Source of the DNA: Planctomycetota bacterium
GTDB taxonomy: Bacteria; Planctomycetota; B15-G4
NCBI GenBank assembly: GCA_965248575.1
Contig: CBDFJQ010000002.1
Location: forward strand, 3,929,375 to 3,993,374
Reading direction: 5' to 3'
Length of the DNA: 64,000 nucleotides
The position numbers and the translations under genes were made by a program. A model generated the notes under the pieces. It searched no databases. It had not been told where the DNA came from and saw only the letters and a list, made by a program, of their open reading frames with translations. Positions 23,637 through 49,935 of this stretch are shown here, one piece after another. Numbering within the stretch: the first letter of the stretch is position 1; each line of letters opens with the position of its first letter.

Positions 23637-24692
23637 ATGGTGCGTTTGCGGGAGGAGCTGCTTGTGCGGAGCTACAGTCCGCGGACGGCACAGACCTATG
23701 AGCACTGGGTGCGGCGCTTCCTGCGGTTTCATGGGATGCGGTCGCCGAGGGGGATGGGGGGTGAGGAGGTGACGGGCTTCCTCTCACACCTGGCGACCGA
23801 GATGAAGGTGAGCGCGTCGACCCAGAACCAGGCGCTGGCGGCGCTGCTGTTCCTTTACGGGAAGGTGTTGCAGGAGGACCTGCCGTGGATGGCGGACGTG
23901 GTGCGGGCGCGGCGGCCCCGCTACCTGCCGGTGGTCATGACTCAGGGGGAGGTACGCGAGGTGCTGGGTGCCTTGGAGGGGGTGCCTGCCACGGTGGGTG
24001 CCTTGCTCTATGGGTCAGGCCTGCGCTTGCTGGAGGCCCTCACCCTGCGGGTGAAGGATGTCGACTTCGGCGCGCGTCAGCTGTTGGTGCGGCAGGGGAA
24101 GGGCAAGAAGGACCGCCGGGCCCTGCTGCCCACCTCGGTGGAAGGGGCCCTGAGGCACCAGCTCCGCCAGGCGCGCTACCAACATGAGCAGGACCTGAAG
24201 AACGACGCAGGATGGGTCGAGCTCCCCGCCGCCTTCGGGCGCAAGTCAACCCACGCCGGCCAGGACTGGCCCTGGCAATGGGTCTTCCCCGCCACACGGA
24301 TCTACACCTGCCAGGAGACGGGAGAACGAAGGCGCCATCACCTGCACGAGACAGTGGTGCAGAAGGCGGTGCGCGCTGCCGCGCGACGAGCGGGACTCTC
24401 GAAACGCATCACAAGCCACGCCTTCCGTCATTCCTTTGCAACCCACTTGCTGCAATCCGGAACCGACATCAGGACCATCCAGAAGCTGCTGGGCCACAAG
24501 AGCGTGCAGACCACGATGATCTACACCCACGTCCTGAACCGCGGACCCATGGGAGTGGTGAGCCCACTGGATCAGCTGGGCGAGGAGGTGCAGCTGGAGG
24601 GGGAGGGACGGAAGGGCGGTGCCGCCGATCCAACGGGTCCACGGGATCCACCAGCCGATGAGGCCGAGGAAGGACCTCCCGGTGCTGGATAA
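23637..24692 (+). CDS. intI: integron integrase IntI (tyrosine recombinase), co-directional with the cassette array
   Basis: N-terminal [30 protein letters not shown]...[21 protein letters not shown]; IntI-specific insertion region ...[29 protein letters not shown]...; catalytic box [39 protein letters not shown] and ...GVVSPLD tail. Start ATG 23637 chosen inside track ORF 23535..24692. Confidence 0.9.
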
Positions 24693-24897
24693 TGCTGAAC
24701 ACCGTCGCGTGATAGACGGACCTGCCTATCGGGGTTAGGGTCGATTCTCGATCTGGCGCCTCAGGCCAGAAAACCGGAACGGAAGAGGAGGAAGTCGCCA
24801 TTGACGGGGAGAGAGAACACGGGCTGTGGGTCGATGGCCGCGTGGGGGCTTCGTTCCGTCTTTGCGTGACAGCCACGCTGTCCAATTGGAGTTAGGC
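24693..24897 (+). other. attI-like region between intI stop and first cassette; crossover core GTTAGGC at 24891-24897, GTTAGGG repeat at 24734-24740
   Basis: Position between intI and first cassette; terminal GTTAGGC identical to the attC R' cores; upstream GTTAGGG may be an integrase-binding direct repeat (inference). Confidence 0.5.
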
Positions 24898-24903
24898 AGC
24901 CGA

Positions 24904-25230
24904 ATGGCGAAGAAGATCAGTCGACTATGGGCTGCGGTGGCCGTCACACTCGCAACTGCCTTGCTGTGCTGGTACGTGGTCATTCCAGCCATCTACGATC
25001 ATTACTTCGAATACGAGACGGCTCTGCATAGAGTTGATCACTTGGTAGGTTCAGGGCGTCAGTTCGCGGAGAACTCCGACTTGGTCAACTACCTGTGGCG
25101 CGAGATTCGCGACGACACCAAGAATGTACCCAACATGGGGTTCTTAACGCCCGAGACGCTCTTCGCACGCGGGCGTCACTACACTCTCATCATGCTTGAG
25201 GAAGCACTGGAGCGCCTCGGTGAGCCCTGA
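24904..25230 (+). CDS. integron cassette ORF 1: small membrane-anchored hypothetical protein
   Basis: ATG 6 nt after attI core; MAKKISRLWAAVAVTLATALLCWYVVIPAI hydrophobic N-terminus; followed by attC. Confidence 0.55.
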   Translation: MAKKISRLWAAVAVTLATALLCWYVVIPAIYDHYFEYETALHRVDHLVGSGRQFAENSDLVNYLWREIRDDTKNVPNMGFLTPETLFARGRHYTLIMLEEALERLGEP

Positions 25231-25235
25231 CGCTT

Positions 25236-25302
25236 GCCTAACTGGCGCTAGCAACGGACGGGGCGCTTCGCGCCCCGCCGCTGAACCGCAGGTACGTTAG
25301 CC
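25236..25302 (+). repeat. attC site 1 (GCCTAAC ... GTTAGCC)
   Basis: Imperfect palindrome bounded by inverse core and core. Confidence 0.7.
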
Positions 25303-25319
25303 AGATGGAGCGTTGAGTG

Positions 25320-25712
25320 ATGCGAACGGTCTTTGCTGTTCTGGCAGGTGTGCTGGTGCATTTTCTGGTGCTGTCTGTCGTCGTTTCGCAGACGGTGACA
25401 CTTCAAGTCGTCCAAGAAGGAGCTGCGCCACTACCCGACGAGAATCCTCTGGTGTCGTGGGTGATCCTTGCGTGCATGTTCGTCGTAGCGGCGCTAGTCG
25501 GCGGAACGGCCGCCGGAGCCGTTTCAAAAGGGCGTTTCGCTCTGGCCTCGTGCCTCGTCGGGGCATGGGGTGCCATGCTGCTGTTCGCCAACGGTCAGAG
25601 TGCTGCAGACCTAGCATTCACCGTAGTCCTTGCCGGTGCAGTACTCTGTGTTCCCGCCGCACTCCTTGGGGGCTACACGTGGAAGAGGTTCTGTGCCAAG
25701 CCAACTGGCTAA
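25320..25712 (+). CDS. integron cassette ORF 2: hypothetical membrane protein
   Basis: Hydrophobic 130-aa ORF; stop TAA lies inside attC inverse core. Confidence 0.55.
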   Translation: MRTVFAVLAGVLVHFLVLSVVVSQTVTLQVVQEGAAPLPDENPLVSWVILACMFVVAALVGGTAAGAVSKGRFALASCLVGAWGAMLLFANGQSAADLAFTVVLAGAVLCVPAALLGGYTWKRFCAKPTG

Positions 25713-25773
25713 CAAGCGCTTGCAGCGGACGGTCCGCTGCGCGGCCCGCCGCTGAACCGCCAGTCCGTTAGGC
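25707..25773 (+). repeat. attC site 2 (GGCTAAC ... GTTAGGC), type A with internal palindrome GCAGCGGAC-G-GTCCGCTGC
   Basis: ctaacaagcgcttgcagcggacggtccgctgcgcggcccgccgctgaaccgccagtccgttaggc. Confidence 0.8.
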
Positions 25774-25799
25774 AGCACCACACTCTTGGAGTTGGGCCG

Positions 25800-26129
25800 A
25801 TGGTCGAATTGCGCCGAATAGAGCCCCTACCTCTCGGGAAGCTGCAGGCCTTTATTTGGGCAGCTCTTGCGCTAGTGCGCGCCGTGCCGATGCTTTTCGC
25901 TACCGTGTTCGAGGGGCCAGGTTCCGAGTTGTGGGGCGAGTTCAGCATCACCTCCATTGTGGACATGACGGGATTCTATGGGCTATTGCTCAGTCCCGTG
26001 GTTGCAGGGTTCTGGGGGCTCATTAATGGCTGCATTATTGCGTTAGCATACAACTGGGCTGCTGGGCAGCTCGGTGGCGTTAAGATCACGATAGTGACGG
26101 CAAGCGAACGTGATGGGGCCAGCGCATGA
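25800..26129 (+). CDS. integron cassette ORF 3: hypothetical membrane protein
   Basis: 109-aa hydrophobic ORF between attC 2 and attC 3. Confidence 0.55.
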   Translation: MVELRRIEPLPLGKLQAFIWAALALVRAVPMLFATVFEGPGSELWGEFSITSIVDMTGFYGLLLSPVVAGFWGLINGCIIALAYNWAAGQLGGVKITIVTASERDGASA

Positions 26130-26135
26130 CGGTCT

Positions 26136-26202
26136 GCCTAACAAGCGCTTGCAGCGGACGGTCCGCTGCGCGGCCCGCCGCTGAACCGCCAGTCCGTTAG
26201 GT
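26136..26202 (+). repeat. attC site 3 (GCCTAAC ... GTTAGGT), type A
   Basis: Near-identical to attC 2. Confidence 0.8.
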
Positions 26203-26209
26203 GGACGTA

Positions 26210-26572
26210 ATGCCGGATGTGAGTGCTCAACCATCGATGATCGAGAAAGTGCGATGCGAAGTCGTGACCTACGATCTGACGTATGCGGAGAAACAGCTGA
26301 TTGCCAAGGGAGCACTCGCGCCAGTTCTGGAGCGTTTGCACAGTACTGCGAGTGACAGCGTAGGCGACTGCGCAAGGTGGAGTGGTATTGCGGCAGTCAT
26401 CGGTTTCGTGGTGCTCCTCGTTGGGCCAAGGAGCAACTCTGTGTGGATTTGGGCGGTTAGCAGTTTTGGGCATCTAGCCTTAGCCGTAGTTCTTGGCTAC
26501 ATGAGCACCCGCCAGCGTAGGGAGGAAAGGCACCTTGCGAATCTCCTCGATACATTGAGGGAGGCAGAGTGA
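26210..26572 (+). CDS. integron cassette ORF 4: hypothetical protein with C-terminal TM segment
   Basis: ATG 26210 (MPDVSAQPSMIEK...); cassette position. Confidence 0.5.
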   Translation: MPDVSAQPSMIEKVRCEVVTYDLTYAEKQLIAKGALAPVLERLHSTASDSVGDCARWSGIAAVIGFVVLLVGPRSNSVWIWAVSSFGHLALAVVLGYMSTRQRREERHLANLLDTLREAE

Positions 26573-26590
26573 AGGCGTCTCTGAGACACC

Positions 26591-26657
26591 ACCTAACAAG
26601 CGCTTGCAGCGGACGTTCCGCTGCGCGGACCGCCGCTGAACCACAGGTCCGTTAGAT
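26591..26657 (+). repeat. attC site 4 (ACCTAAC ... GTTAGAT), type A
   Basis: Same repeat family with point differences. Confidence 0.75.
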
Positions 26658-26747
26658 GGGCGGATCTACGCAGGAAGGTGCAACACACAGGGTCTCCAAG
26701 TGTTAGATGAACCAAACGGAGAGCAACCGAAGAAGCGGCGCACCGCA

Positions 26748-26885
26748 ATGGCTACGAGTGTTTCGATTGGGGCAGCTGTTGGGGCCGTGTTCGGCGTGGC
26801 GGTGAGCAACATTGGCCTCGGCATTGCTATTGGCGTTGCGGTGGGCGTGGCCATCGGCGCAAGTCGAGAGGCAGGTAGGAAGTGA
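26748..26885 (+). CDS. integron cassette ORF 5: small glycine-zipper membrane peptide
   Basis: MATSVSIGAAVGAVFGVAVSNIGLGIAIGVAVGVAIGASREAGRK; alternative GTG start at 26700. Confidence 0.45.
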   Translation: MATSVSIGAAVGAVFGVAVSNIGLGIAIGVAVGVAIGASREAGRK

Positions 26886-26890
26886 ATGCC

Positions 26891-26952
26891 ATCTAACAAG
26901 CCGCACCAGACGGACCGGGCTCCGCCCGGCTGCTGAACGCCAGTCGGCAAGG
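26891..26952 (+). repeat. attC site 5, type B with degenerate R' core (GGCAAGG in place of GTTAGGC)
   Basis: atctaacaagccgcaccagacggaccgggctccgcccggctgctgaacgccagtcggcaagg; R' core altered. Confidence 0.5.
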
Positions 26953-27003
26953 CGGCAACATTGGACCGACGCACCACACAGGAGAGAACTATTGGCCGAC
27001 AAT

Positions 27004-27423
27004 GTGAAGACCACAGCGGCGACGGTGATTCCGACCATGCGATACAACGATGCAGCGGCAGCCATCGCGTGGCTCTGCGAAGCGTTCGGATTCGAGAAAC
27101 ACCTGGTCGTTCCCGGTGAAGACGGCACAATCGCCCACGCACAGCTCGTCTTCGGGAATGGAATGGTAATGCTCGCCTCAGCGCGCGCGAGCGAGTTCGA
27201 CAACCTTCACAAGCTGCCGAGCGCCCTGGGCGACGCCGTATCTCAGAGCCCGTACATCATCGTCGACGACGCCGACAAACACTACGCACGAGCTGTTGCG
27301 GCGGGCGCAGAGATCGTGATTGAAATTAGGGACGAGGATTACGGGGGCCGAGGCTACTCTTGTCGCGATCCCGAAGGGCACGTTTGGAACTTCGGCTCCT
27401 ACGATCCCTGGGCCTCCGCCTAA
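27004..27423 (+). CDS. integron cassette ORF 6: VOC-family (glyoxalase/bleomycin-resistance fold) protein
   Basis: GTG start; (M)KTTAATVIPTMRYNDAAAAIAWLCEAFGFEKHLVVPGEDGTIAHAQLVFGNGMVM...DEDYGGRGYSCRDPEGHVWNFGSYDPW resembles PhnB/VOC proteins. Confidence 0.7.
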   Translation: MKTTAATVIPTMRYNDAAAAIAWLCEAFGFEKHLVVPGEDGTIAHAQLVFGNGMVMLASARASEFDNLHKLPSALGDAVSQSPYIIVDDADKHYARAVAAGAEIVIEIRDEDYGGRGYSCRDPEGHVWNFGSYDPWASA

Positions 27424-27484
27424 CAAGCGCTTGCAGCGGACGGTCCGCTGCGCGGCCCGTCGCTGAACCGCCAGTCCGTTGGGC
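27418..27484 (+). repeat. attC site 6 (GCCTAAC ... GTTGGGC), type A
   Basis: Stop TAA inside inverse core. Confidence 0.8.
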
Positions 27485-27514
27485 GGACGGAGTCACTGAC
27501 CGCGGGAGAGTGGA

Positions 27515-27757
27515 ATGGCCATGACCTGGACGATAGTGCTAGTTGTAGTGCATGTGGTTCTTGCTCTCGCGGCTATTCGCTACGCACGAAAGAAGTCTAC
27601 CTGGACGCGTGGCCCACAGTTCGCAGTCGTCTGTGCATTGGCAATTCCGATAGTTGGACCAATAATGACCCTTCTTTCAGCAGCCGCTTCGGGAAGCGGT
27701 GAATACGTAGACGAGAGTGTGCAATACGGCGTCGATCCACCGGACCTAGGTAGCTAG
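27515..27757 (+). CDS. integron cassette ORF 7: small membrane protein
   Basis: 80-aa ORF, two hydrophobic helices. Confidence 0.5.
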   Translation: MAMTWTIVLVVVHVVLALAAIRYARKKSTWTRGPQFAVVCALAIPIVGPIMTLLSAAASGSGEYVDESVQYGVDPPDLGS

Positions 27758-27798
27758 AATGGCGACTAGTTCAAGAGAGCCAAGGCGTTACGCCGCAC

Positions 27799-27862
27799 GC
27801 CCAACAAGCCTTTTCAGACGGACCGGGCTTCGCCCGGCCGCCGAACCGCAGGTCCGCTAGCT
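27799..27862 (+). repeat. attC site 7, type B (GCCCAAC ... GCTAGCT)
   Basis: cccaacaagccttttcagacggaccgggcttcgcccggccgccgaaccgcaggtccgctagct. Confidence 0.6.
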
Positions 27863-27875
27863 AGACGGAACAGTC

Positions 27876-28097
27876 ATGAGGGAGCAGGGCAAAGGACGAC
27901 GGATCAGGCATGTCCAGAACTGGGATCTCCATGTCTTCATGCTGCTCTTTGTCGTACCAGCTTTTGCTGGAGGCCTTTGGCTGGTCCATCCTCTTCTGGG
28001 CTTGGTTGTGGTCGCCATCTTCGTAGTCTGGGTTGTAGACAACGTGCACGAGTCCAATCGTCTCCAGGAGCGCGGCCGCCGTGAGCGCACTAGCTAA
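27876..28097 (+). CDS. integron cassette ORF 8: small membrane protein
   Basis: 73-aa ORF with hydrophobic helices; stop inside attC inverse core. Confidence 0.5.
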   Translation: MREQGKGRRIRHVQNWDLHVFMLLFVVPAFAGGLWLVHPLLGLVVVAIFVVWVVDNVHESNRLQERGRRERTS

Positions 28098-28158
28098 CAA
28101 GCGCTTGCAGCGGACGGTCCGCTGCGCGTCCCGCCGCTGACCCGCAGATACGTTAGCC
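28092..28158 (+). repeat. attC site 8 (AGCTAAC ... GTTAGCC), type A
   Basis: Same repeat family. Confidence 0.8.
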
Positions 28159-28160
28159 GG

Positions 28161-28514
28161 ATGGAGGCGATGCCGGTCACCAAGTTCCAAGAGGAATGGA
28201 ATGAGATCGCAGTGCGGTGGGGCCTCTACGTGAAGGCGCCGTTCGTGGTCAAACTCATTCACGGAGAAGTCACCGTCCCTGTGCTTCTTCGAGACTTCGG
28301 CGCCTCTCACGGGATGCTACTTGTTACGGACTATGGCCTGATCTCTCCCCACTGGGAGGAACTCGTGAGCCTTGGTTTTGGGTTCTCGTGCCTCAGTGAG
28401 CCTGACGGAGTGAGCCACCCCGACGACGACGAAGCCCTCATGGAGATGCTCTCAGACTGGGGATGGTCGGGAAGCGAGAACCCTCCCGAGTGGTATCGTG
28501 AACCCAGTAGCTAA
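28161..28514 (+). CDS. integron cassette ORF 9: hypothetical soluble protein
   Basis: 117-aa ORF starting 3 nt after attC 8; no recognised motif. Confidence 0.5.
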   Translation: MEAMPVTKFQEEWNEIAVRWGLYVKAPFVVKLIHGEVTVPVLLRDFGASHGMLLVTDYGLISPHWEELVSLGFGFSCLSEPDGVSHPDDDEALMEMLSDWGWSGSENPPEWYREPSS

Positions 28515-28572
28515 CCAGCCGTAGCAGACGGGCCGGGCTGGGCCCGGCCGCTGAACGGCAGGTCCGTTAGGC
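28509..28572 (+). repeat. attC site 9, type B (AGCTAAC ... GTTAGGC)
   Basis: agctaaccagccgtagcagacgggccgggctgggcccggccgctgaacggcaggtccgttaggc. Confidence 0.75.
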
Positions 28573-28591
28573 GCACGAAGGGGGAGTACTG

Positions 28592-29107
28592 ATGCCCGTT
28601 CGATTCGAATGCTCGAAATGCGGACAGGACATCTCGTCGTTCATGCGCGTTGGAGAGACTGCGGAATGTCCATCATGCGGCGCGCGAGTGCAGGTACCTG
28701 CTTCGGCGGAGCGCAGAGGACTTACCTATGAGCCGTCGCAAAGAGGGGGCTACCCAGCGCCGACGATCGCTGACGGGCCCCCGGCGGAGTCGATACCACA
28801 TGCTGAGGCTTTCACCGTGAGGCGGATCCAGGCACGGACGATTCTCCAACTATCTCTGATCGGCCACCTCTGCTTCTGCATTCCGGCTTTTCTGCTCGTG
28901 GGGCTTGGGGCAGCCCTCGGATTCGAGGGCTGGTCGGTAACGTGGAATGACGAACCCGTGACTGGAGTCATGGCCGTGCTTGTAGCTCTGCCTCTTGGCG
29001 TAGGCGCAGGGCTCGGATCCGGCCTCGCCAATGGAACCGTCGCCTGCATTGGCCTCTGGATCTACTCCAGGTTTCGGTGGGTGACGGTCCACTATGCGCG
29101 AGCGTAG
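28592..29107 (+). CDS. integron cassette ORF 10: zinc-ribbon plus transmembrane protein
   Basis: N-terminal CSKCGQ...CPSCGARV (Cx2C...Cx2C) followed by hydrophobic helices. Confidence 0.55.
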   Translation: MPVRFECSKCGQDISSFMRVGETAECPSCGARVQVPASAERRGLTYEPSQRGGYPAPTIADGPPAESIPHAEAFTVRRIQARTILQLSLIGHLCFCIPAFLLVGLGAALGFEGWSVTWNDEPVTGVMAVLVALPLGVGAGLGSGLANGTVACIGLWIYSRFRWVTVHYARA

Positions 29108-29113
29108 CATTGC

Positions 29114-29180
29114 GTCTAGCAAGCGCTTGCGGCGGACTGTCCGCTGCGCGTCCCGCCGCTGAATCGCAACGACGTTAGGC
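29114..29180 (+). repeat. attC site 10 (GTCTAGC ... GTTAGGC), type A variant
   Basis: Same repeat family. Confidence 0.7.
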
Positions 29181-29193
29181 AGAGCAACTGACG

Positions 29194-29613
29194 ATGATCG
29201 AATTCCAGCTGTTGCCCAGAACCTCGGACGGGACAGAAGAGCCACAGCTCTGGTTTCGGGTGCGGCTACGCGGTGAGTTCACAGGAGAGCTCGACCTGCA
29301 ATTGGAGACAGCTGAAGTTCTCTCGTTTGTTGAGCAGCTCGCAGGCTTTCCGAGGTCAACAGAGCAGGTTGAATCGGCAAGGCTCGTCGACCGGCACGCA
29401 GCCAGGTTTGCCGATTTCGAAGTTTCCTGCATCGATCGATCGGGGCATGTCCGCGTTGCAGCCAGCCTTGGGTCGGGTTCAGGGCAGTTTGGCGCTCCTG
29501 TCTGGGACACGGTCACAGCCAACGTCGCAGCCGTTGCGGCTGAGATCGACGTGTTTCAGAAGCAGCTTGTAGCGATCATCAAAGGGATTGAGTCCCATGC
29601 GCGCCTTGCCTAA
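29194..29613 (+). CDS. integron cassette ORF 11: hypothetical protein
   Basis: 139-aa ORF; no recognised motif. Confidence 0.5.
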   Translation: MIEFQLLPRTSDGTEEPQLWFRVRLRGEFTGELDLQLETAEVLSFVEQLAGFPRSTEQVESARLVDRHAARFADFEVSCIDRSGHVRVAASLGSGSGQFGAPVWDTVTANVAAVAAEIDVFQKQLVAIIKGIESHARLA

Positions 29614-29670
29614 CAAGTGCGTGCAGCGGACACCGCTCTGCGGCGCAGCTGACCCACTGAGTCGGTAGAT
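29608..29670 (+). repeat. attC site 11 (GCCTAAC ... GGTAGAT), divergent 3' half
   Basis: 5' half matches type A; 3' half diverged, adjoining a lower-GC cassette. Confidence 0.5.
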
Positions 29671-29686
29671 ATATGAACGGTGTTTA

Positions 29687-30199
29687 ATGAACGAAAAGCA
29701 ACCACGAATAATGCCATCCACTGAGTCCCAATCTCTACCAGGTAAGGGCAAGTCAGGCCGGTTCTGGCAAGGGTTCTGGCTTATATTCCTAGTGGTTTCA
29801 CTTGCCTACGCTTGGTACTCCTTCTATGCGCCTTCCAACCGCATCGCCTGGGCCGATAACTTCACGGCTGCGCAACAACAGGCAGTCAAGTCTGACAAAC
29901 CGATGATTCTCTTTTTCACTGGCAAGTGGTGTTCACCCTGCCAGATCATGAAACGTCAAGTCTGGGCGGATGAACAGGTGATGGCTGCGGTCAATGAGGC
30001 GTTCATCCCTGTGACGATTGACGTGGATGACCCTAATGCGGCCTCGGCATTGAGTCGGTACGGTGTTGGCCTAACGCCAACCACTATCATCACGGATTCA
30101 AAAGGGAATGTCTTGCAACGGAACCACGGGAGGATGAGCAAAACCGAATTCCTCGAATTGTTAGGTGAGATTGATCCATCGACCGTCGAAGATCTGTAA
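29687..30199 (+). CDS. integron cassette ORF 12: thioredoxin-fold protein (WCSPC active site), lower-GC cassette
   Basis: MILFFTGKWCSPCQIMKRQVWADEQV...: CxxC thioredoxin-like motif; N-terminal TM anchor; composition visibly AT-richer than flanks. Confidence 0.65.
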   Translation: MNEKQPRIMPSTESQSLPGKGKSGRFWQGFWLIFLVVSLAYAWYSFYAPSNRIAWADNFTAAQQQAVKSDKPMILFFTGKWCSPCQIMKRQVWADEQVMAAVNEAFIPVTIDVDDPNAASALSRYGVGLTPTTIITDSKGNVLQRNHGRMSKTEFLELLGEIDPSTVEDL

Positions 30200-30251
30200 T
30201 GCTAAGCGACTGCACCGTCTCTCTTCGGGCAATCATTGGTTTCGTTGGACT

Positions 30252-30312
30252 ATCTAACCATTCGTTGCACCAGACCGGCTTCGCCGACAGGTGAACGGCA
30301 AACCCGTTAGCC
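30252..30312 (+). repeat. attC site 12 (ATCTAAC ... GTTAGCC), distinct sequence type
   Basis: Bounded by canonical cores; internal sequence unlike types A/B. Confidence 0.6.
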
Positions 30313-30330
30313 AGATCAACTGAGGTTATC

Positions 30331-31116
30331 GTGGGCACTGCTCCCAGCAATCTCCGATGTCGAATAACGGATGCCGTGTGCAAAGCGTTACGGCCGTTGC
30401 CCCATGTGTTCGCCGGATGGGAGGGCGGGAGCGCTGCCTTCGATCTCGTGGATGAGTACTCCGACATAGACTTGAACTTCTTGTTGGATGACGCGGCCCT
30501 GGTCGATTCCCTTTATGCCGTTGTCGAGTCTGCACTCGAGACTGTGTCGCCGATTTCTACCACCCACTTTGAGCCCCCCGGCCGCTACTACAAATTGAGG
30601 GATGGTGGAGATTTCCTCCTGGTCGATGTGTGCATCTACCAGCCTGGGTCGCTCAGCGAGTGCCTCGACGTTGATCGTCACGGGAAAATTCGGCAGCTCT
30701 TCGACAAGGGGCAGTGGCTACGCAGCGAGACCTCAAGCGTGGTGTCCCAGCGAGCTACCCGAGCCAAGCGTCGGGACGATCTCGAAGAGTGGTTTTCCGT
30801 GAGTCAGAGTTTTGTCCGCAAGGCAATCATGCGCGGCCACGAGGTGGAGGCCTTGGCGGCGTTCTGGGGTTACACGCTCAAGCCACTCGTGGAAATTCTT
30901 CGCATGCGGTATTGCCCCGCACGATGGGACTTCGGCATGCGCTATCTGCAGAGAGATCTTCCAGGTCCTGTGTACGATGAGCTGCGGGGCATCATGTTTG
31001 TCGGAGAGTCTGTCGACCTAGCGGAAAAACTAGCGAAGGCGGTCGCATGGGGAGAGAGGCTACTGAGAGAATCTAAGCCGGGCAGTGAGATTGGACCTTC
31101 GCCAAGGGCTGGCTAA
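30331..31116 (+). CDS. integron cassette ORF 13: nucleotidyltransferase-fold protein
   Basis: GWEGGSAAFDLVDEYSDIDLNF fits the GS-x(n)-D-x-D minimal nucleotidyltransferase motif; substrate unknown. GTG start. Confidence 0.55.
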   Translation: MGTAPSNLRCRITDAVCKALRPLPHVFAGWEGGSAAFDLVDEYSDIDLNFLLDDAALVDSLYAVVESALETVSPISTTHFEPPGRYYKLRDGGDFLLVDVCIYQPGSLSECLDVDRHGKIRQLFDKGQWLRSETSSVVSQRATRAKRRDDLEEWFSVSQSFVRKAIMRGHEVEALAAFWGYTLKPLVEILRMRYCPARWDFGMRYLQRDLPGPVYDELRGIMFVGESVDLAEKLAKAVAWGERLLRESKPGSEIGPSPRAG

Positions 31117-31239
31117 CAAGGCGCTGCAGCTGACCGGCTCATGCGTCGGCGTTCCCAGGTTCTGGTAGTCTCTCGAACACGAAGGCGTTTCGAGGCCGGG
31201 GGCAAATCCCGCTGGCATCTGAGCGCCGGTCCGTTAGCT
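31111..31239 (+). repeat. attC site 13, long form (GGCTAAC ... GTTAGCT)
   Basis: About 129 bp between inverse core and core. Confidence 0.55.
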
Positions 31240-31255
31240 GGGCCAAGGAGCGACC

Positions 31256-31540
31256 GTGTCCAAACCAGCCAAGCTGTCGCTCGTGATGGCGGTGATCGCG
31301 ATGCTCCTGGCAGCTCCATTGTTGGGGGGGCACCAGTTGAGCGTGCATGGTGATCCATACACGTACATCTTCTTCCTCCCGAACATCGTTCCGCTGTTGG
31401 TACTTGAGTCGGCAGGCTATTTGCCAACAGATCACGAGTTGCTTGCGGCTGCCTCCAGTGTCGGGTTCTGGGTCATCACTGGAGCTGCGATTGGGTGGGT
31501 TTCAGTCTGGCGAACCCGAGGAGATCAAGATGCCACATAG
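31256..31540 (+). CDS. integron cassette ORF 14: small membrane protein
   Basis: GTG start; 94-aa hydrophobic ORF. Confidence 0.5.
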   Translation: MSKPAKLSLVMAVIAMLLAAPLLGGHQLSVHGDPYTYIFFLPNIVPLLVLESAGYLPTDHELLAAASSVGFWVITGAAIGWVSVWRTRGDQDAT

Positions 31541-31543
31541 CCA

Positions 31544-31605
31544 GCTACCAGCCGTAGCGGACGGACCGGGCTACGCCCGTCCGCTGAACGGCAGATACGT
31601 TAGCC
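31544..31605 (+). repeat. attC site 14, type B (AGCTACC ... GTTAGCC)
   Basis: agctaccagccgtagcggacggaccgggctacgcccgtccgctgaacggcagatacgttagcc. Confidence 0.7.
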
Positions 31606-31618
31606 GGATCAGGGAGGG

Positions 31619-32095
31619 GTGTTCGATATGTCTAGCCAAGATGTTGCCTCGTTCGTACTGAGGCTCTTGGGCGTCTTATTGCTCGTGACCTCGATTCCGA
31701 TTGCGATGGCCGTCATTGCTGACCAAGGGGGCCCCGGCTTGGGACCACTGACGGCGTCTGTCCTTGTTGGAGTGGCCCTCATTGTTTGGAGTCGGCCGCT
31801 CGGCAGTCGAATCGCTCCGAGCCCTGGCAAGCCCTCCGATGCGAAAGCATTGTCTGTCACGGACTGGCAGGCCATCGCCTTCTCGGCAATCGGCATCATG
31901 GTCATCGTGCGCAGCCTTGAGGCCTTCGCCGACAGTTACTTTCGATCCGAGGCGTTCGGAGCAGAGTTGTGGCCATGGCCCTTCACGGCGGTCCCCCTCT
32001 TGCAGTTGGTGGTTGGAGTCCTCCTGTTCTTCCAAGGGAGGGGTTTGGCCGCCTTCTGGCGCCGTTCGCAAGGAGACGGCGGTTCCAGCGGCTGA
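31619..32095 (+). CDS. integron cassette ORF 15: hypothetical membrane protein
   Basis: 158-aa ORF with 4 hydrophobic segments. Confidence 0.5.
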   Translation: MFDMSSQDVASFVLRLLGVLLLVTSIPIAMAVIADQGGPGLGPLTASVLVGVALIVWSRPLGSRIAPSPGKPSDAKALSVTDWQAIAFSAIGIMVIVRSLEAFADSYFRSEAFGAELWPWPFTAVPLLQLVVGVLLFFQGRGLAAFWRRSQGDGGSSG

Positions 32096-32156
32096 CACGC
32101 GCAAGCAACGGACGGTCCGCTGCGCGCCCCGCCGCTGAACCGCAGATGTGTTAGAC
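32091..32156 (+). repeat. attC site 15, type A variant (... GTTAGAC)
   Basis: gcaagcaacggacggtccgctgcgcgccccgccgctgaaccgcagatgtgttagac. Confidence 0.65.
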
Positions 32157-32178
32157 AGAGTTAGAGAGGAGGAACACG

Positions 32179-32673
32179 ATGGCTGACAGCAACGGCTCGT
32201 CCGTCCAGCGCGCTGCCCAAGCGAGGCGAGATCTCCTGCCTTCGTGGTTGAGGTCCATCTGCGTTCTCGTGGTTCCACTCTCGCTAGCAACCGTAGCGCT
32301 TCTCGCGACCGGCGTTCTCAAGCCCGACTCCTTCGACTTGAAGCTCCTCGGCATCGCCTACGGCGCGCTTTCACAGCCCGCCGCATTGGCCAGCCAGGTT
32401 TTCGTCATTGCGCTGGGTGTCTCCGCTGTTGGTTTGCTCCGCGGCGATGTGTGGGCTCTTGGTCTAGCGAGCTTCCTCAGCATTGTCGGCGTCGCCATGG
32501 CGCCGAGCGTCATCGAGTTCACTGAACCAGGATTCCATCTGAGGTTCGATGCACTGATCTTCGTTTCTCTCATCATTGCCCTGGAAAGGCGTCGAGCAGG
32601 ATGGAAGGCCGTCACAAGATCCAACCCTGTCAAACAAGAGCTTGCAGCGGATGCCGCTCCACCTAACCGCTGA
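32179..32673 (+). CDS. integron cassette ORF 16: hypothetical membrane protein; coding sequence reads through the 5' half of its attC
   Basis: 164-aa ORF; C-terminal ...VKQELAADAAPPNR is encoded by the attC-like sequence caaacaagagcttgcagcgg... Confidence 0.5.
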   Translation: MADSNGSSVQRAAQARRDLLPSWLRSICVLVVPLSLATVALLATGVLKPDSFDLKLLGIAYGALSQPAALASQVFVIALGVSAVGLLRGDVWALGLASFLSIVGVAMAPSVIEFTEPGFHLRFDALIFVSLIIALERRRAGWKAVTRSNPVKQELAADAAPPNR

Positions 32674-32691
32674 ACCACTGAGACGTTGGAC
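32629..32691 (+). repeat. attC site 16, short type A variant (GTCAAAC ... GTTGGAC)
   Basis: Same family, diverged. Confidence 0.55.
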
Positions 32692-32713
32692 GGAGCATTC
32701 AACCTTGGGTCCA

Positions 32714-32959
32714 ATGTCGCCAAGAGTCCTGATGTCAGGTTCCGCGATCGTCGTTGCGGACGTTGGATTTGGGATGGTCATCTGGGGGACCACGGCCTGT
32801 GCCATGAGGGACGAGAGGCTCGGCTGGTGGGGTAGGGTCATGGCCCCAGTCCTTCTTCTCCACGCATTCGGTTTCTGGGTGGTGATGCGAGCGGCCCCGT
32901 GGCTCAAGAGAGCTTCGGACGACAGAGATCAGTTTGCGGGAGGCTCCGGTGCGAGTTGA
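32714..32959 (+). CDS. integron cassette ORF 17: small membrane protein (shares a cassette with ORF 18)
   Basis: 81-aa hydrophobic ORF; no attC between it and the next ORF. Confidence 0.4.
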   Translation: MSPRVLMSGSAIVVADVGFGMVIWGTTACAMRDERLGWWGRVMAPVLLLHAFGFWVVMRAAPWLKRASDDRDQFAGGSGAS

Positions 32960-33536
32960 ATGTCTACTCTGGGACTTCGGGGACACGCTCTGCGACGAGC
33001 TCTCGCTCTGGCGCGCGACCCCCGAATGGATGGATGTCTACCGCTCGTTCGACGATGGGCTTGGCGCCGCTTGGAGCCTGGGCGAGCTCGACACTCCCGG
33101 CTTCGTGGCTGAGTTGGCCAAGCGCATGCCGCTTGCCGAAGCGGAGATCCTCGCGCACTTGAACCGCACCGATCTCTTCGAGTTCTTTCCGTTCACCTAT
33201 GCGTTCTTTCGCGACCGCCACCTTCCCCAGGCCATCGTGACCGTGAATCCCACCTTCTTCTCCGAGGTCGTTGTGCCCGGCTGCGCCTTGGACAACGTCA
33301 CGGACGCTATCGTCGTTTCGGGAGAAGAAGGGACGATTGACAAGGGTGAGCTCTGTCACCGAGCCCTTCAACGCATGGACTTCGACTCTGACCCTTCTCA
33401 CGCGTTGCTGATCGACAACAAGAAATCCAACCTCGACGCCTGGGCGAAGCGAGGCGGTGTCGGGTATTTGTATACGACCGATTCTGCGTTTCGACAGGAC
33501 GTTGCCCGCGGCATTGATCACCTCAGAGAGCGTTAG
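32949..33536 (+). CDS. integron cassette ORF 18: HAD-like hydrolase-fold protein
   Basis: GTG start; (M)RVECLLWDFGDTLCDE resembles HAD motif I; C-terminal LLIDNKKSNLDAWAKRGGVGYLY resembles motifs III/IV. Tentative. Confidence 0.5.
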   Translation: MRVECLLWDFGDTLCDELSLWRATPEWMDVYRSFDDGLGAAWSLGELDTPGFVAELAKRMPLAEAEILAHLNRTDLFEFFPFTYAFFRDRHLPQAIVTVNPTFFSEVVVPGCALDNVTDAIVVSGEEGTIDKGELCHRALQRMDFDSDPSHALLIDNKKSNLDAWAKRGGVGYLYTTDSAFRQDVARGIDHLRER

Positions 33537-33557
33537 GAATCCACGCGCTGGGTCGCC

Positions 33558-33692
33558 CTCTAACAAGCGGTTGCAGGTGACGACCAACAGTTCGCCTCAA
33601 TCGATCCGTGGTACGGTTCTGGCGGCGGGTGCTGCGCCCAAGCGTTCGCGGTCAACGCTGTTGGGCGCAGCTGAATCGCATGTCCGTTGGTC
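33558..33692 (+). repeat. attC site 18, long form (CTCTAAC ... GTTGGTC)
   Basis: About 135 bp, distinct internal sequence. Confidence 0.5.
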
Positions 33693-33719
33693 CGACCTCA
33701 ATCTGTTCTTTTCCGGTAG

Positions 33720-34274
33720 GTGCACGAGTTGAAACGGGTGGTAGTTCTTGACTACGACGCGGCCTGGGCCACGGTCTTCCAGGGGTTGCGTTTACCTGTG
33801 TGGAGTGCTCTTTCTGACATCGCGATCTCCGTGGAGCACGTTGGGAGCACAGCCGTCCCGGGCCTGGCAGCCAAGCCCGTGATTGACTTTGACGTGGTCG
33901 TCCCACAAAGCGAGCAAGCAGAGGCTATCGCGCGACTCTCTTCGCTTGGTTACGTGCACCGGGGTGACTTGGGAGTGCCGCAGCGGGAGGCGTTCCGTCC
34001 TCCGAAGGGTTCTCCGCATCACCATCTCTACCTCTGCCTGCCGACGAGTCCTGCACACGCCAACCACATCGCAATCCGTGACCATCTTCGCGCTCACCCT
34101 ACGGATGCAATGGCCTACGGGGACCTCAAGAGGCGTCTTGCTCAAGAGTTCCCCCACGACATGGACGGGTACATAGAGGGTAAGACCGGTTTCCTGGTCG
34201 CGATTCTTCGCAGGCTTGGCTTTGCGGAGGAAGCTTTGGGCAGCATCGAGCGAATGAACCACCGACCAGGCTAA
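33720..34274 (+). CDS. integron cassette ORF 19: GrpB-family (UPF0157) protein
   Basis: GTG start; ...ISVEHVGSTAVPGLAAKPVIDFDVVV... and overall length match the GrpB family. Confidence 0.7.
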   Translation: MHELKRVVVLDYDAAWATVFQGLRLPVWSALSDIAISVEHVGSTAVPGLAAKPVIDFDVVVPQSEQAEAIARLSSLGYVHRGDLGVPQREAFRPPKGSPHHHLYLCLPTSPAHANHIAIRDHLRAHPTDAMAYGDLKRRLAQEFPHDMDGYIEGKTGFLVAILRRLGFAEEALGSIERMNHRPG

Positions 34275-34411
34275 GCCGGTGAGCCAACACCCCCCTGGGG
34301 CAGACGGAGTCCTTGTCAAACCCGCTGCCCCAGCGCGATACTGTGCGTGAAGTGCGTGGAAGCAACCGGACGCGACAAGGCCTCCGTTGCTGAACCGCAT
34401 GTCCGTTAGGC
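34269..34411 (+). repeat. attC site 19, long form (GGCTAAG ... GTTAGGC)
   Basis: About 143 bp; canonical R' core. Confidence 0.5.
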
Positions 34412-34437
34412 GGTGATTCTGAGCGGCAAGGAGAAGC

Positions 34438-34824
34438 ATGTCCAAACTCGTGATGGGCCTCGGCGTGTTCATTATTCTCGCGAGTCTGTGGGTCCTGGTG
34501 TTTCCGGAGCAACTCGTGTCGCTCACGGACTGGGAATCGCGAGAAATGCTCTACGTCGCAGCCGGGATGAGGGTCGTGATCGGGCTTGTCCTGGTCCTGT
34601 CCGCTTCGTCTACGAGGTCTCCCACGGGCATTCGGGTCGTCGGCGGCCTGACCGTTCTCGCTGGCATCGGCCTTCTGTTCATTCCAATCGATTTGTGGAG
34701 GGACCTGATTCAGTATTGGCTCGTTGACAACCTCGCCATGTATCGCTTCGGTGGTGGGGCATTCGGAATACTGATTGGCGCCTTCTTCGTGCATGCATCC
34801 TCGCCCAAGACGCCTTCCGCCTGA
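34438..34824 (+). CDS. integron cassette ORF 20: hypothetical membrane protein
   Basis: 128-aa ORF with 4 hydrophobic segments. Confidence 0.5.
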   Translation: MSKLVMGLGVFIILASLWVLVFPEQLVSLTDWESREMLYVAAGMRVVIGLVLVLSASSTRSPTGIRVVGGLTVLAGIGLLFIPIDLWRDLIQYWLVDNLAMYRFGGGAFGILIGAFFVHASSPKTPSA

Positions 34825-34885
34825 GATGCGCTTGCAGCGAATCGTCCGCTGTGCGCCCCACCGCTGAATCGCAGATACGTAAGCC
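34818..34885 (+). repeat. attC site 20, type A variant (GCCTGAG ... GTAAGCC)
   Basis: gcgcttgcagcgaatcgtccgctgtgcgccccaccgctgaatcgcagatacgtaagcc. Confidence 0.6.
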
Positions 34886-34899
34886 ACGGAGTAGGGCAA

Positions 34900-35262
34900 T
34901 TGATCAAGTTCATCATGTGTTTGAGGCGCCGCCGAGGGATGACCCGCGAGGACTTCAAGGAGTACTGGAAGAACAAGCACGGCCCGTTCTTCATGAAGAA
35001 TGCAGAGAAGATGGGTGCCAAGAAATACGTGCAGTCTTACACCTTGAATACGCCACTGAATGAAGGCCTCAGGACTTCCAGGGGTATGCTTCCTGAATAT
35101 GATGGTCTTGCGGAAGTCTGGTTCGATTCAGAAGAAGCACTCCTGGAGGGAATGAGTTCTCCGGAAGGGCAACGACTGGGCGCGGCCTTGCTGGAGGATG
35201 AGGGCAACTTCATCGATCACTCGAAGTCCTCGGCGTTCATTGTTGAAGAGCACGAGTTCTAG
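34900..35262 (+). CDS. integron cassette ORF 21: EthD-like (dimeric alpha/beta-barrel) protein, lower-GC
   Basis: ...DGLAEVWFDSEEALLEGMSSPEGQRLGAALLEDEGNFIDHSKSSAFIVEEHEF matches the EthD-family C-terminal pattern; TTG start in track, ATG 34915 alternative. Confidence 0.6.
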   Translation: MIKFIMCLRRRRGMTREDFKEYWKNKHGPFFMKNAEKMGAKKYVQSYTLNTPLNEGLRTSRGMLPEYDGLAEVWFDSEEALLEGMSSPEGQRLGAALLEDEGNFIDHSKSSAFIVEEHEF

Positions 35263-35291
35263 AGTCGCTGGCCCAACCGGACGAGGTATCT

Positions 35292-35819
35292 GTGGGACAA
35301 CTCCCAGAACTGCCTTCGGACAGCGACCTTGAGATCCTCACGCCGCGTCTGAAACTGGTGCCGATGCGCAGCGTGCACGCTGCGATCATGTTCCCCGTTC
35401 TGTCGGACGCCAAGCTCTACGAGTTCATCGGCGGTTCCCCTCCGTCTTCAGAAGAGTCGCTTGCGGATGTCTACGCCTCACGGGAATCGCGTCGATCGCC
35501 CGGTGGCGACCAACTTTGGCTCAACTGGCTCATGTGGGAGTCAGAGCAAGGGGAGGCCGTGGGATACACGCAGGCAACGGTCCATCCGACGCACGCCTAC
35601 GTGGCTTGGCTCGTTGACACGCGGTGGCAAGGTCTTGGCCATGCGTCTGAAGCGGCAACGGCTCTCGTGAGGTGGCTGGTTGCACTAGGTGTGCAAGAGA
35701 TTCGGGCGTGTGTGAACCTGGGCCACACGGCCAGTCGACGAGTGGCGCACAACGCTGGTCTGCGCATGACCAAGGACTTCATCGATGGTGAGGAAGCGTG
35801 GGCGTATCGTGCTCCGTGA
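35292..35819 (+). CDS. integron cassette ORF 22: GNAT-family N-acetyltransferase (RimJ/RimL-like)
   Basis: GTG start; LETPRLKLVP-like N-terminus (ILTPRLKLVPM) and acetyl-CoA-binding-like WQGLGHASEAATALVRW; no attC between ORF 21 and 22. Confidence 0.65.
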   Translation: MGQLPELPSDSDLEILTPRLKLVPMRSVHAAIMFPVLSDAKLYEFIGGSPPSSEESLADVYASRESRRSPGGDQLWLNWLMWESEQGEAVGYTQATVHPTHAYVAWLVDTRWQGLGHASEAATALVRWLVALGVQEIRACVNLGHTASRRVAHNAGLRMTKDFIDGEEAWAYRAP

Positions 35820-35829
35820 CGACCGGTTT

Positions 35830-35900: not shown

Positions 35901-35938
35901 TTCTGCCCAGCCCGGCGGAGCCCACCATCCCACCCCTC

Positions 35939-49909: not shown

Positions 49910-49935
49910 AGGTGTGGCGCGGGTGGTCCTGGAGA

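Follow-up and report, generated by a model that had tools for sequence, protein, structure and literature searches.

The array of gene cassettes described here raises the question of whether a cassette that is much AT-richer than its surroundings has arrived recently from another host. A preliminary description of the window, by which we mean the whole stretch of 64,000 nucleotides that was analysed, had read the low GC content of cassette 12, which codes for a thioredoxin-like protein, as the mark of such an import, and had pointed to a cassette for an EthD-like protein as a similar case. We consider below the locus, the limits and product of the cassette, its composition, its occurrence in other genomes and, lastly, its age in this array.

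A chromosomal integron with a co-oriented integrase

The locus is a chromosomal integron, as its integrase and the 19 attC sites co-oriented with it show; its host is an uncultured, Planctomycetota-like bacterium of high GC. The product of intI (23535..24692, + strand; start codon uncertain) matches the integron integrase profile TIGR02249 in full length (positions 2-315 of 315) with 416 bits (cut-off 265), and is also recognised by the Pfam profiles Phage_integrase and Phage_int_SAM_4. The attC sites, all on the + strand, lie between 25236 and 34885 at a spacing of 300-1000 nucleotides, and intI is on the strand of the cassettes and of the attC sites (the 'inverted integrase' layout). The best named matches to the TruB protein of the window are all labelled 'Planctomycetota bacterium' except for one labelled Pseudohongiellaceae, a MAG whose TruB is 74% identical to that of the window; where integron arrays are concerned, the taxon assigned to a MAG or metagenome bin cannot be relied on. 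The heptamer GTTAGGC (24891..24897, + strand), read from the sequence, is a candidate for the attI recombination point, at which the first cassette would begin. From here about 21 cassettes (24892..35830, + strand), recognised by repeat families, nhmmer attC matches and composition, extend to a decayed distal end whose cassettes are devoid of attC. The dominant, 67-nucleotide attC type (type A) accounts for 9 of the 19 sites, with 64-78 bits against the attC profile of the array, and the GTT triplet has been lost at four sites. A profile search of the rest of the window recovered no comparable attC scores. At 59.3% GC the array stands 7-8 points below its flanks (65.5-67.8%).

These sites were detected by profile searches and direct alignment, in place of a generic detector. 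A detector of the latter kind, using R''/R' complementarity and hairpin or duplex energy, missed most true sites in its strict version, returned 27-54 matches per flank strand in this GC-rich DNA when relaxed, and was abandoned. RNAalifold, applied to the mixed attC types, gave an uninformative consensus of 7 pairs.

Extent, junctions and attC of cassette 12

Cassette 12 in the strict sense comprises 642 nucleotides (29665..30306, + strand; 51.2% GC), similarity to the cassettes of other genomes starting and stopping at its recombination points. It contains a single ORF, followed by an attC with an R'' box (..TAAC) and an R' box (GTTRRRY), and judged by this organisation it is a bona fide gene cassette, with one ORF and its own attC. 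The site at 29608..29670 (+ strand, 63 nucleotides), which had been listed among the flanking attC sites of cassette 12, in fact belongs to cassette 11 and is of the same type as the site at 32629-32691 (repeat family D9); bases 29665-29670 within it form the 5' end of cassette 12. Its R' box (29664-29670) reads GGTAGAT, with the invariant GTT mutated, and GTTAGAT occupies this position in five of seven relatives. The 3' untranslated part (30200..30251, + strand) ends in ...gttggact right before the attC and is kept in relatives, with 73-77% identity to loci L084, L085, L009 and L007. The attC of cassette 12 itself (30252..30312, + strand; 61 nucleotides, 57% GC; R'' ATCTAAC, R' GTTAGCC) is a short variant of the type-B family; it scores 51 bits against the type-B profile, and the corresponding sites of L084 and L009 are each 84% identical to it. 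Its R'' is the exact reverse complement of GTTAGAT, the ancestral 5' boundary of the cassette family. The two sites flanking the cassette do differ from the dominant type (45.9 and 38.2 bits), as had been stated, but this does not make them special in an array where that type is found at 9 of 19 sites.

An intact GTT is needed at both junctions for the excision of a cassette. In cassette 12 it is intact at the 3' junction (GTTAGCC) and mutated at the 5' junction. The bottom strand of its attC is predicted to fold with a minimum free energy of -11.1 kcal/mol (z = -1.8) into a structure other than the canonical hairpin, the homologous attC of L084 having z = -3.2 and a predicted canonical hairpin, although MFE folding is a poor proxy for the recombination competence of attC sites. 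The mutated GTT together with the weakened hairpin suggests that by now the cassette on its own moves poorly or not at all; it is probably a cassette by descent that can no longer be excised by itself.

A membrane-anchored thioredoxin-like protein

The ORF of cassette 12 (29687-30199, + strand) codes for a protein of 170 amino acids, which, as the preliminary description had recognised, combines an N-terminal anchor with a thioredoxin fold and a WCSPC motif. Three Pfam profiles match it above their cut-offs, namely PF13899 (Thioredoxin_7; 59.1 bits, cut-off 27), PF13098 (Thioredoxin_2; 47.6 bits) and PF03190 (Thioredox_DsbH; 42.2 bits); no NCBIfam equivalog reached its cut-off. A transmembrane helix is predicted at residues 23-46 (29753..29824, + strand) by the AlphaFold model (pLDDT 80), which shows this helix and a thioredoxin fold, and by hydropathy, which has its maximum at residues 30-48. 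Given the single helix and an N-terminal tail with 5 K/R as against 2 D/E, the positive-inside rule suggests an N-in, domain-out topology. The WCSPC motif (residues 81-85; 29927-29941, + strand) directly precedes a predicted helix (83-93), and 38 homologues share its C82, P84 and C85 without exception. The top Foldseek matches are to DsbD-gamma (probability 1.0, TM 0.74), and profile matches in the PDB are to 2kuc, 3f9u and DsbD. The predicted fold and the motif make the protein a probable thiol-disulfide oxidoreductase of the DsbD-gamma/DsbH type in the periplasm, which may pass reducing equivalents to periplasmic proteins or reshuffle their disulfides. The dN/dS of 0.27 to its closest relatives indicates that the gene has been kept under purifying selection.

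Base composition of cassettes and core genes

That cassette 12 is visibly AT-richer than the remainder of the window is borne out by measurement: it has the lowest GC of the 19 delimited cassettes (z = -6), the other 18 having a mean of 59.9% (sd 1.5, range 57-62%, minimum 57.1%), and falls below every 642-nucleotide window outside the array (mean 66.5%, minimum 58.1%). Its ORF has a GC of about 51.3-51.7% (GC1 0.515, GC2 0.433, GC3 ~0.59). The comparison of GC and codon usage with core genes that had been advised placed this ORF outside the core distribution, and did so equally for all 20 cassette ORFs; the result that had been named as refuting the proposal was thus not obtained, and on this count the proposal is not refuted. 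Core genes have GC3 values of 0.76-0.91 (mean 0.834, minimum 0.761) and an ORF GC of 0.668 (minimum 0.594), as against a GC3 of 0.49-0.75 in the array, and the codon-usage log-likelihood ratio is negative in 20 of 20 cassette ORFs (-0.255 in cassette 12) and positive in 23 of 23 core ORFs, a contrast that is somewhat circular since GC3 had been one of the criteria for choosing the core genes. Within the array cassette 12 is no outlier by GC3 (z = -1.1) or by log-likelihood ratio (z = -1.1), and attC type is no predictor of GC3 (Mann-Whitney p = 0.72). The whole array is compositionally foreign, and cassette 12 is not uniquely so.

Much of the dip in raw GC is accounted for by the protein. Under the codon usage of the array the ORF would be expected to have 54.2% GC, as against 51.7% observed and a mean of 59.0% in the other cassettes; amino-acid composition thus makes up ~4.9 of the 7.3 points of its deficit, or about two thirds. 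For the EthD cassette the whole of the deficit is explained in this way. Its 5' junction is the attC of cassette 19 (34819..34885, + strand), a site of the dominant type whose R'' has degenerated to GCCTGAG and whose R' reads GTAAGCC, and it consists of an ORF for a 120-residue EthD-family protein (34900..35262, + strand, TTG start as listed; Pfam EthD 74.8 bits, TIGR02118 48 bits), which is separated by 29 nucleotides from the next ORF, for a GNAT protein (35292-35819), and has no attC of its own. It had rightly been called less GC-rich, the region 34880-35291 having 53.2% GC and the ORF, at 52.3%, being second lowest. The 52.7% observed, however, equals the 52.6% expected under array codon usage, and its GC3 of 0.694 lies above the array mean (z = +0.5 for both GC3 and log-likelihood ratio). 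The low GC of the EthD cassette is therefore purely an effect of amino-acid composition, and the GC3 values of the two cassettes (z -1.1 and +0.5 within the array) lend no support to the idea that their low GC marks them as newer than the rest.

The same data could be taken further, to the reading that low GC carries no historical information: it would reflect nothing but the residues of which two conserved proteins are made, and cassette 12 would have been in the cassette pool of this lineage as long as the others. Beyond the two thirds of the deficit explained in one ORF and the whole of it in the other, this reading gains from the recurrence of thioredoxin cassettes in arrays with type-A attC (L009, L095, L036) and beside the shared cassette c6 (L011, L095), with a GC below the flanks in each array, and from an EthD gene that lies 8.5 points under its flank even in an array of 65% GC (L164). 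We nevertheless regard it as doubtful. The 129 non-coding nucleotides of cassette 12 are AT-richer too (51.2% GC, as against mostly 61-77% in other cassettes), and the attC that travels along with the gene belongs to another type than the dominant one. Moreover, amino-acid composition does not force a GC of 51%, because the gene reaches 62-68% (GC3 0.82-0.93) in the GC-rich genomes L021, L033 and L099, where it looks native. Position-specific constraint within the array was rejected as a cause of the dip, the same composition being found in unrelated arrays.

On our preferred reading the low GC of cassette 12 has three causes: a conserved protein rich in residues with AT-rich codons, which explains about two thirds of the ORF deficit relative to neighbouring cassettes; a GC3 of 0.59 and non-coding DNA of 51% GC that retain the ~50% GC of the cassette pool; and an attC of an AT-richer type. 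Its synonymous sites have not drifted towards the host GC3 of 0.83, as is the case for every cassette of the array. Since this unameliorated synonymous and non-coding composition is common to all of them, cassette 12 is foreign like its neighbours and not demonstrably newer.

The same cassette in other hosts

Cassette 12 recurs in arrays whose flanks have 36-65% GC and whose hosts are Planctomycetota, Neomarinimicrobiota and other bacteria. The copies have in common the 5' boundary G|TTAGAT, the ORF, the 3' untranslated part and an attC beginning ATCTAACCAGCCGTTGCAG. In an alignment of eight DNA sequences similarity sets in at G|TTAGAT and breaks off at the R' box of the attC that follows; for L084, as an example, identity is 0.39 upstream, 0.86 in the ORF, 0.75 in the 3' untranslated part and 0.84 in the attC. 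The drop from 0.75-0.86 within the cassette to 0.3-0.5 outside it occurs at the crossover points in 5-7 independent loci, and by these boundaries of homology cassette 12 is evidently a mobile unit. Its neighbours c11 and c13 do not travel with it: when all cassette proteins of the window were compared with the fetched loci, only c6 was matched, with 92% nucleotide identity.

In all these cassette hosts the GC of the gene stays at 46-54%. Across the loci with the cassette signature (flanks 37-65%, gene 46-53%) it has a slope of 0.20 on flank GC, whereas in 115 loci that have no cassette signature it tracks the host (slope 0.76, r = 0.92). The gene forms a GC-rich island in a host of 29-36% GC (L085) and a GC-poor trough in one of 62-69% (L007). 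In all comparisons with flank GC, the flank of a short locus may be DNA of a cassette array and not of the core genome. The dS of the window copy is 0.40 to a copy in a host of 36.5% GC and 0.45 to one in a host of 65% GC, both unsaturated, and a scan of 5.8 billion proteins and of metagenomes gave as its closest relative a copy with 82% amino-acid and 86% nucleotide identity (dS 0.38). Because the same cassette and attC occur in unrelated hosts while the GC of the gene varies little, an origin of cassette 12 by horizontal transfer, from outside the lineage of this genome, is supported by the comparison of sequences.

It might instead be supposed that the thioredoxin gene is native to the host lineage, was packaged here and spread from this genome to the other copies. 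The family is indeed overwhelmingly planctomycetal (284 genome matches among species representatives, mostly Planctomycetota, the genome of the window not being among them), and the host itself appears to be one of the Planctomycetota. Yet the gene has a GC3 of 0.59 as against 0.76-0.91 in the core, its attC is not of the dominant type of the array, the junction of the window copy has decayed, and this copy is neither basal nor central among its relatives (between L084 and L007 identity is 93%, whereas each is only 83-86% identical to it). A native origin is accordingly very improbable. No second, chromosomal thioredoxin paralogue was found in the window.

As to a donor, tracing of cassette sources by attC type is treated in Ghaly et al. 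2021 (PMC8352920) and Cury et al. 2016 (PMC4889954). The database search that had been recommended leads to arrays of the SI037_bin56 type, from a marine Planctomycetota MAG of ~50% GC, where type-B attC is dominant (5-8 copies) and the composition of the cassette matches its surroundings. No near-identical copy turned up in another lineage. In cultured Pirellulales the copies resemble their hosts in GC and are not bounded as cassettes. The probable source, as we infer it together with the direction of transfer, is a chromosomal gene of Planctomycetota with ~50-57% GC, which would have been packaged with a type-B attC in such a lineage; on this reading the cassette was captured by an integron integrase through recombination of attC with attI (or of attC with attC) and now stands twelfth. 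We hold it to be likely, with good confidence, that cassette 12 represents a family of cassettes that circulates with its own attC among marine and sediment bacteria of diverse GC, and that it is foreign here, with no sign of a recent arrival.

Recency of the arrival

The proposal that cassette 12 and the EthD cassette came recently from a lower-GC donor, and bear an unameliorated signature distinct from that of older cassettes, can draw on several observations. Cassette 12 ranks lowest in the array by whole-cassette GC and almost lowest by non-coding GC; its GC3 of 0.591 is no higher than that of its closest relative, L084 (0.602; flank 55%); and its attC is of a type seen in Planctomycetota arrays of ~50% GC. 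Furthermore, third positions on the window branch show 10 W->S and 8 S->W changes, lacking the W->S excess of ~3.4:1 that the host regime predicts (binomial P = 0.036). There has been no amelioration on this branch, though the counts are small, and the 18 third-position changes are as compatible with an equilibrium peculiar to the array (GC3 ~0.66) as with a recent arrival.

New cassettes normally enter an array at attI. Cassette 12, the twelfth from attI, is away from this entry point, its 5' junction has changed from GTT to GGT and its attC is weakened, and even its nearest relative is at 86% nucleotide identity and a dS of 0.38, c6 having a far closer foreign match. Within the array its GC3 and codon usage are no outliers, and the EthD cassette, with a GC3 of 0.69, a low GC confined to amino-acid composition, a mutated 5' junction (GTAAGCC) and no attC, speaks against recency as well. 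We therefore think a recent import unlikely: of the claim originally made for cassette 12, the foreign origin stands, with the same cassette present in unrelated hosts, while its recency is unproven and partly contradicted. The family of circulating cassettes described above remains our preferred reading.

Implications and comparison with known systems

Raw GC is a poor clock within an integron array. The dip here is mostly one of amino-acid composition and the whole array is compositionally foreign; the informative evidence lies in conserved cassette boundaries and attC type in other genomes. By these the present case records how a family of thioredoxin-like cassettes moves between bacteria that differ widely in GC, and adds a well-delimited planctomycetal chromosomal integron with a co-oriented integrase, leaving the current understanding of integrons unchanged. 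A more far-reaching version, to which we give somewhat less than even credence, is that the thioredoxin cassette and its attC have been exchanged between three or more groups of phylum rank (Planctomycetota, Neomarinimicrobiota and others) of 36-67% GC, and so fast that synonymous sites are still unsaturated (dS ~0.4) and the composition unameliorated. If so, there would be an inter-phylum network of cassette exchange in marine and sediment habitats that includes planctomycetal integrons with co-oriented intI, and the repeated retention of the family under purifying selection would suggest that selection there commonly favours a periplasmic disulfide reductase as an 'accessory' trait.

The cassette 12 protein shares the thioredoxin fold and the WCxxC motif with DsbD-gamma, DsbH and the Bacteroides 'exported cytochrome c biogenesis-related' thioredoxin-like proteins (PDB 2fwg, 1uc7, 2ju5, 3f9u, 2kuc), to whose structures it is matched by Foldseek with a probability of 1.0 and a target-normalised TM of 0.73-0.76. 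Its sequence identity to the solved structures is 20-27%, and it is a stand-alone protein of 170 residues with a single N-terminal anchor, unlike DsbD gamma, which is a domain of the multi-pass DsbD. The EthD protein resembles the small EthD/TIGR02118 proteins that are common as integron cassettes, sharing their domain and having homologues in cassette-like contexts (L164, L167), but in contrast to these the window copy no longer has an attC to itself and has become fused to the region of the following GNAT ORF.

The array as a whole is reminiscent of sedentary chromosomal arrays such as those of Vibrio and Xanthomonas, which likewise have an intI, a long co-oriented series of cassettes, each without a promoter and with a single ORF and a terminal attC, and one dominant attC type with others mixed in. 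It differs from them in that the dominant attC makes up 9 of 19 sites, four GTT triplets have been lost, the distal attC sites are missing and its GC is 7-8 points under that of the flanks. The placement of intI on the strand of the cassettes and attC sites is that of the 'inverted integrase' integrons of the Treponema denticola group, Planctomycetes, Chlorobi and Cyanobacteria, a layout known from the literature.

The lower-GC region is an integron cassette array

The window, of about 67% GC, has a trough of about 59% at roughly 24.9-35.8 kb, which is an integron cassette array. The ORF at 23535-24692 (+) encodes an integron integrase (IntI) that gives a full-length match to TIGR02249 (416 bits against a cut-off of 265). 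Downstream of it, on the same strand, the array (24892-35830) contains 19 attC-like repeats at intervals of 300-1000 nt, each of them following a small ORF. Nine of these sites belong to the dominant 67-nt type (type A) and four to the 62-66 nt type B (26890, 27800, 28509 and 31540); two are of a 63-nt type (29608 and 32629), three are long (110-135 nt), and the 61-nt site at 30252, which is cassette 12's own, scores as a short type-B member (51 bits). The array is partly decayed, though intI looks intact: the invariant GTT is gone from 4 of the 19 R' boxes (GCAAGGC, GCTAGCT, GGTAGAT and GTAAGCC, at 26943-26949, 27856-27862, 29664-29670 and 34879-34885), and no recognisable attC was found at 35263-36200 for the last two ORFs, encoding EthD and a GNAT acetyltransferase. 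Cassette 5 (26652-26949) is a cassette-like unit of about 300 nt that terminates in a degenerate type-B attC and lacks a convincing ORF on the + strand; a 203-aa TTG-initiated ORF (26812-27423) runs through it into the adjacent glyoxalase gene. Outside the integron, two further stretches of 59-63% GC (43000-46000 and 49000-54500; ORF GC3 0.66-0.86) may, judging from composition, be other acquired regions.

Compositional properties of cassette 12 and the EthD ORF

The preliminary description had read a low-GC thioredoxin-like cassette as a recent import from a different host, and had noted a comparable drop in GC in the EthD-like cassette. The ORF in question (29687-30199; 170 aa), with its WCSPC motif, is indeed present and lies between attC sites at 29608-29670 and 30252-30312. 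Both sites are of a non-dominant type, as had been noted, but the upstream one belongs to cassette 11 rather than to cassette 12, and non-dominant attCs are common to about half of the cassettes. Cut at its recombination points (29665-30306), cassette 12 has 51.2% GC against 57.1-62.2% in the other 18 cassettes (mean 59.9, sd 1.5; z = -6), and the minimum for 642-nt windows outside the array is 58.1%. The GC dip is thus real and far beyond chance. The EthD ORF (34900-35262, +) is second lowest, at 52.3%.

Codon usage was compared between 23 long core ORFs called outside the array and 20 cassette ORFs. GC3 ranges over 0.76-0.91 (mean 0.834) in the former and 0.49-0.75 in the latter, and the per-codon log-likelihood ratio of core versus array usage is above zero in 23/23 core ORFs and below zero in 20/20 cassette ORFs. 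The array as a whole thus departs from the core in composition, and the foreignness of cassette 12 is common to all of it. Within the array the thioredoxin-like ORF (GC3 0.592, z = -1.1) and EthD (0.689, z = +0.5) are unexceptional in GC3, which is also not predicted by attC type (mean 0.668 for type A versus 0.648 for the others; p = 0.72). Under array-average codon usage the two ORFs would have 54.2% and 52.6% GC; the observed values are 51.7% and 52.7%, against a mean of 59.0% for the ORFs of other cassettes. About two-thirds of the thioredoxin-like ORF's dip, and the whole of EthD's, is therefore due to amino-acid composition. The extra-low GC of cassette 12 is thus mostly a matter of protein composition, the residue being a modest shift of synonymous usage towards AT and a lower GC of the non-coding DNA (51.2% GC over 129 nt, against mostly 61-77% in other cassettes).

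Relatives of the EthD/TIGR02118 protein (120 aa) at 78-86% identity occur across many lineages, with gene GC (39% to 57%) and GC3 (0.36 to 0.74) following the host. In one locus (L164) the gene lies 8.5 points under its flanks despite a cassette context of 65% GC, confirming that the family's amino-acid content depresses its GC. In the window EthD has GTAAGCC at its 5' junction and no attC of its own. On an unrelated contig of about 40% GC (L167, 4001-4987) EthD is likewise directly followed by a GNAT gene, as at 34900-35819 in the window, where the GNAT ORF (35292-35819) is of a different Pfam family; this adjacency may be a coincidence or a recurrent pairing.

Cassette 12 as a mobile unit

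The thioredoxin-like family has 786 database relatives. Its 284 matches among species-representative genomes are overwhelmingly from Planctomycetota, with occasional members in Neomarinimicrobiota, Verrucomicrobiota, Acidobacteriota and others. The closest relatives of cassette 12 are themselves cassettes, which have in common a 5' boundary G|TTAGATAGAT... followed by ATG, the ORF, a 3' UTR terminating in ...gttggact and an attC reading ATCTAACCAGCCGTTGCAGACAGACC...GGCTGCTGAACGGCAAACCCGTTAGnn. When eight loci are aligned, similarity starts exactly at the upstream R' box and stops at that of the cassette's own attC; identity to one of them (L084) is 0.39 upstream of the cassette, 0.86 in the ORF, 0.75 in the 3' UTR and 0.84 in the attC. 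The family's 5' boundary GTTAGAT, when reverse-complemented, gives exactly the R'' box ATCTAAC, as expected if both ends were once joined in a circular cassette.

These relatives lie in very different settings: L085 has a cassette of about 49% GC between flanks of 29-36%, and L007 one of 53.6% in surroundings of 62-69%; L006, L088 and L093 are from Neomarinimicrobiota bins of about 40% GC, and L009 has 61%. In Planctomycetota SI037_bin56 (L005, L089-L092; about 50-52% GC), where type-B attCs are dominant (5-8 copies), cassette GC matches the surroundings. Across nine distinct loci bearing the cassette signature gene GC stays at 46-53% (slope 0.20 against flank GC), whereas in 115 loci without it the gene tracks host GC (slope 0.76, r = 0.92), reaching 62-68% in GC-rich genomes. 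Cultured Pirellulales (Blastopirellula marina, Bremerella) have the gene without cassette boundaries and with host-like GC. Most economically, the cassette would derive from a chromosomal gene of Planctomycetota, with about 50-57% GC, that was packaged together with a type-B attC and later spread horizontally. In SI037_bin56 (L034, 5196-5303; also L103 and L104, 4196-4303), a fragment of 36 aa that matches the IntI C-terminus at 61-64% identity is encoded about 700 nt upstream of a thioredoxin-like paralogue, among ordinary chromosomal genes; this may be the fossil of an integron whose thioredoxin-like cassette became fixed.

Age of the acquisition

Cassette 12 is thus foreign, but a recent arrival is not demonstrated, and several observations speak against it. 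The nearest copy of its gene is 82% identical in protein and 86% in nucleotide sequence (dS 0.375), and copies from a 36.5% GC and a 65% GC host are at dS 0.40 and 0.45, respectively. Cassettes normally integrate at attI, and this one is in the 12th position from it. Its 5' junction reads GGT where 5/7 relatives keep GTT, and its attC has stem substitutions and is predicted to fold weakly (z = -1.8 versus -3.2 in L084). Moreover, family members of 64-73% identity occur in arrays with the window's type-A attC (L009, L095, L036) or with a shared cassette 6 (L011, L095), which makes the family a regular constituent of this cassette pool. Limited residence would agree with the lack of GC enrichment among substitutions polarised to the window's branch (15 W->S versus 15 S->W overall; 10 versus 8 at third positions, against about 3.4:1 expected under the host's GC3 equilibrium, P = 0.036). 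An array-specific equilibrium near GC3 0.66 accommodates these counts as well, and they therefore do not single out cassette 12. Cassette 6 (26950-27478; VOC/glyoxalase ORF 27046-27423) shares 92% nucleotide identity over 490 nt with a cassette lying directly upstream of a thioredoxin-like one in a Candidatus Eisenbacteria MAG (L011, 5390-5879), and is 90% identical to a metagenome contig with type-A attC (L095, 6-341). This match between genomes is much closer than any of cassette 12, making cassette 6 the better candidate for recent exchange.

Predicted structure and function of the thioredoxin-like protein

In the structure that AlphaFold predicts from a 38-sequence alignment (mean pLDDT 80), the N-terminal tail is disordered and is followed by a single long helix (residues 23-46) and by a thioredoxin fold in which WCSPC lies where the helix of residues 83-93 begins. 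The top Foldseek matches (probability 1.0, target TM 0.73-0.76) are the DsbD C-terminal (gamma) domain, a Bacteroides 'exported cytochrome c biogenesis-related' protein, DsbH and thioredoxins, and profile-to-PDB matches agree. The tail has a net positive charge (5 K/R versus 2 D/E), suggesting that the anchor is N-in and that the redox domain lies on the outer side of the cytoplasmic membrane. All of 38 homologues keep C82, P84 and C85, and dN/dS is 0.15-0.30; purifying selection therefore acts on the gene. The protein is a putative periplasmic thiol-disulfide reductase or isomerase.

The host and the layout of its integron

The host seems to belong to a GC-rich, uncultured Planctomycetota lineage. 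With the window's own entry set aside, TruB (4422-5420) has matches at 60-85% identity, and the named ones are all labelled 'Planctomycetota bacterium' except one. The exception (74% identical) is from a MAG labelled Pseudohongiellaceae (L009 and P0143) whose array has type-A attCs; this is probably a mislabelled relative of the host, or a chimeric bin. Cassette 12 is an integron cassette that circulates horizontally; the observation that drew attention to it was correct, and the phenomenon is an ordinary one. The array itself, with intI co-oriented with its cassettes in an apparently GC-rich Planctomycetota genome, has the known 'inverted integrase' layout.
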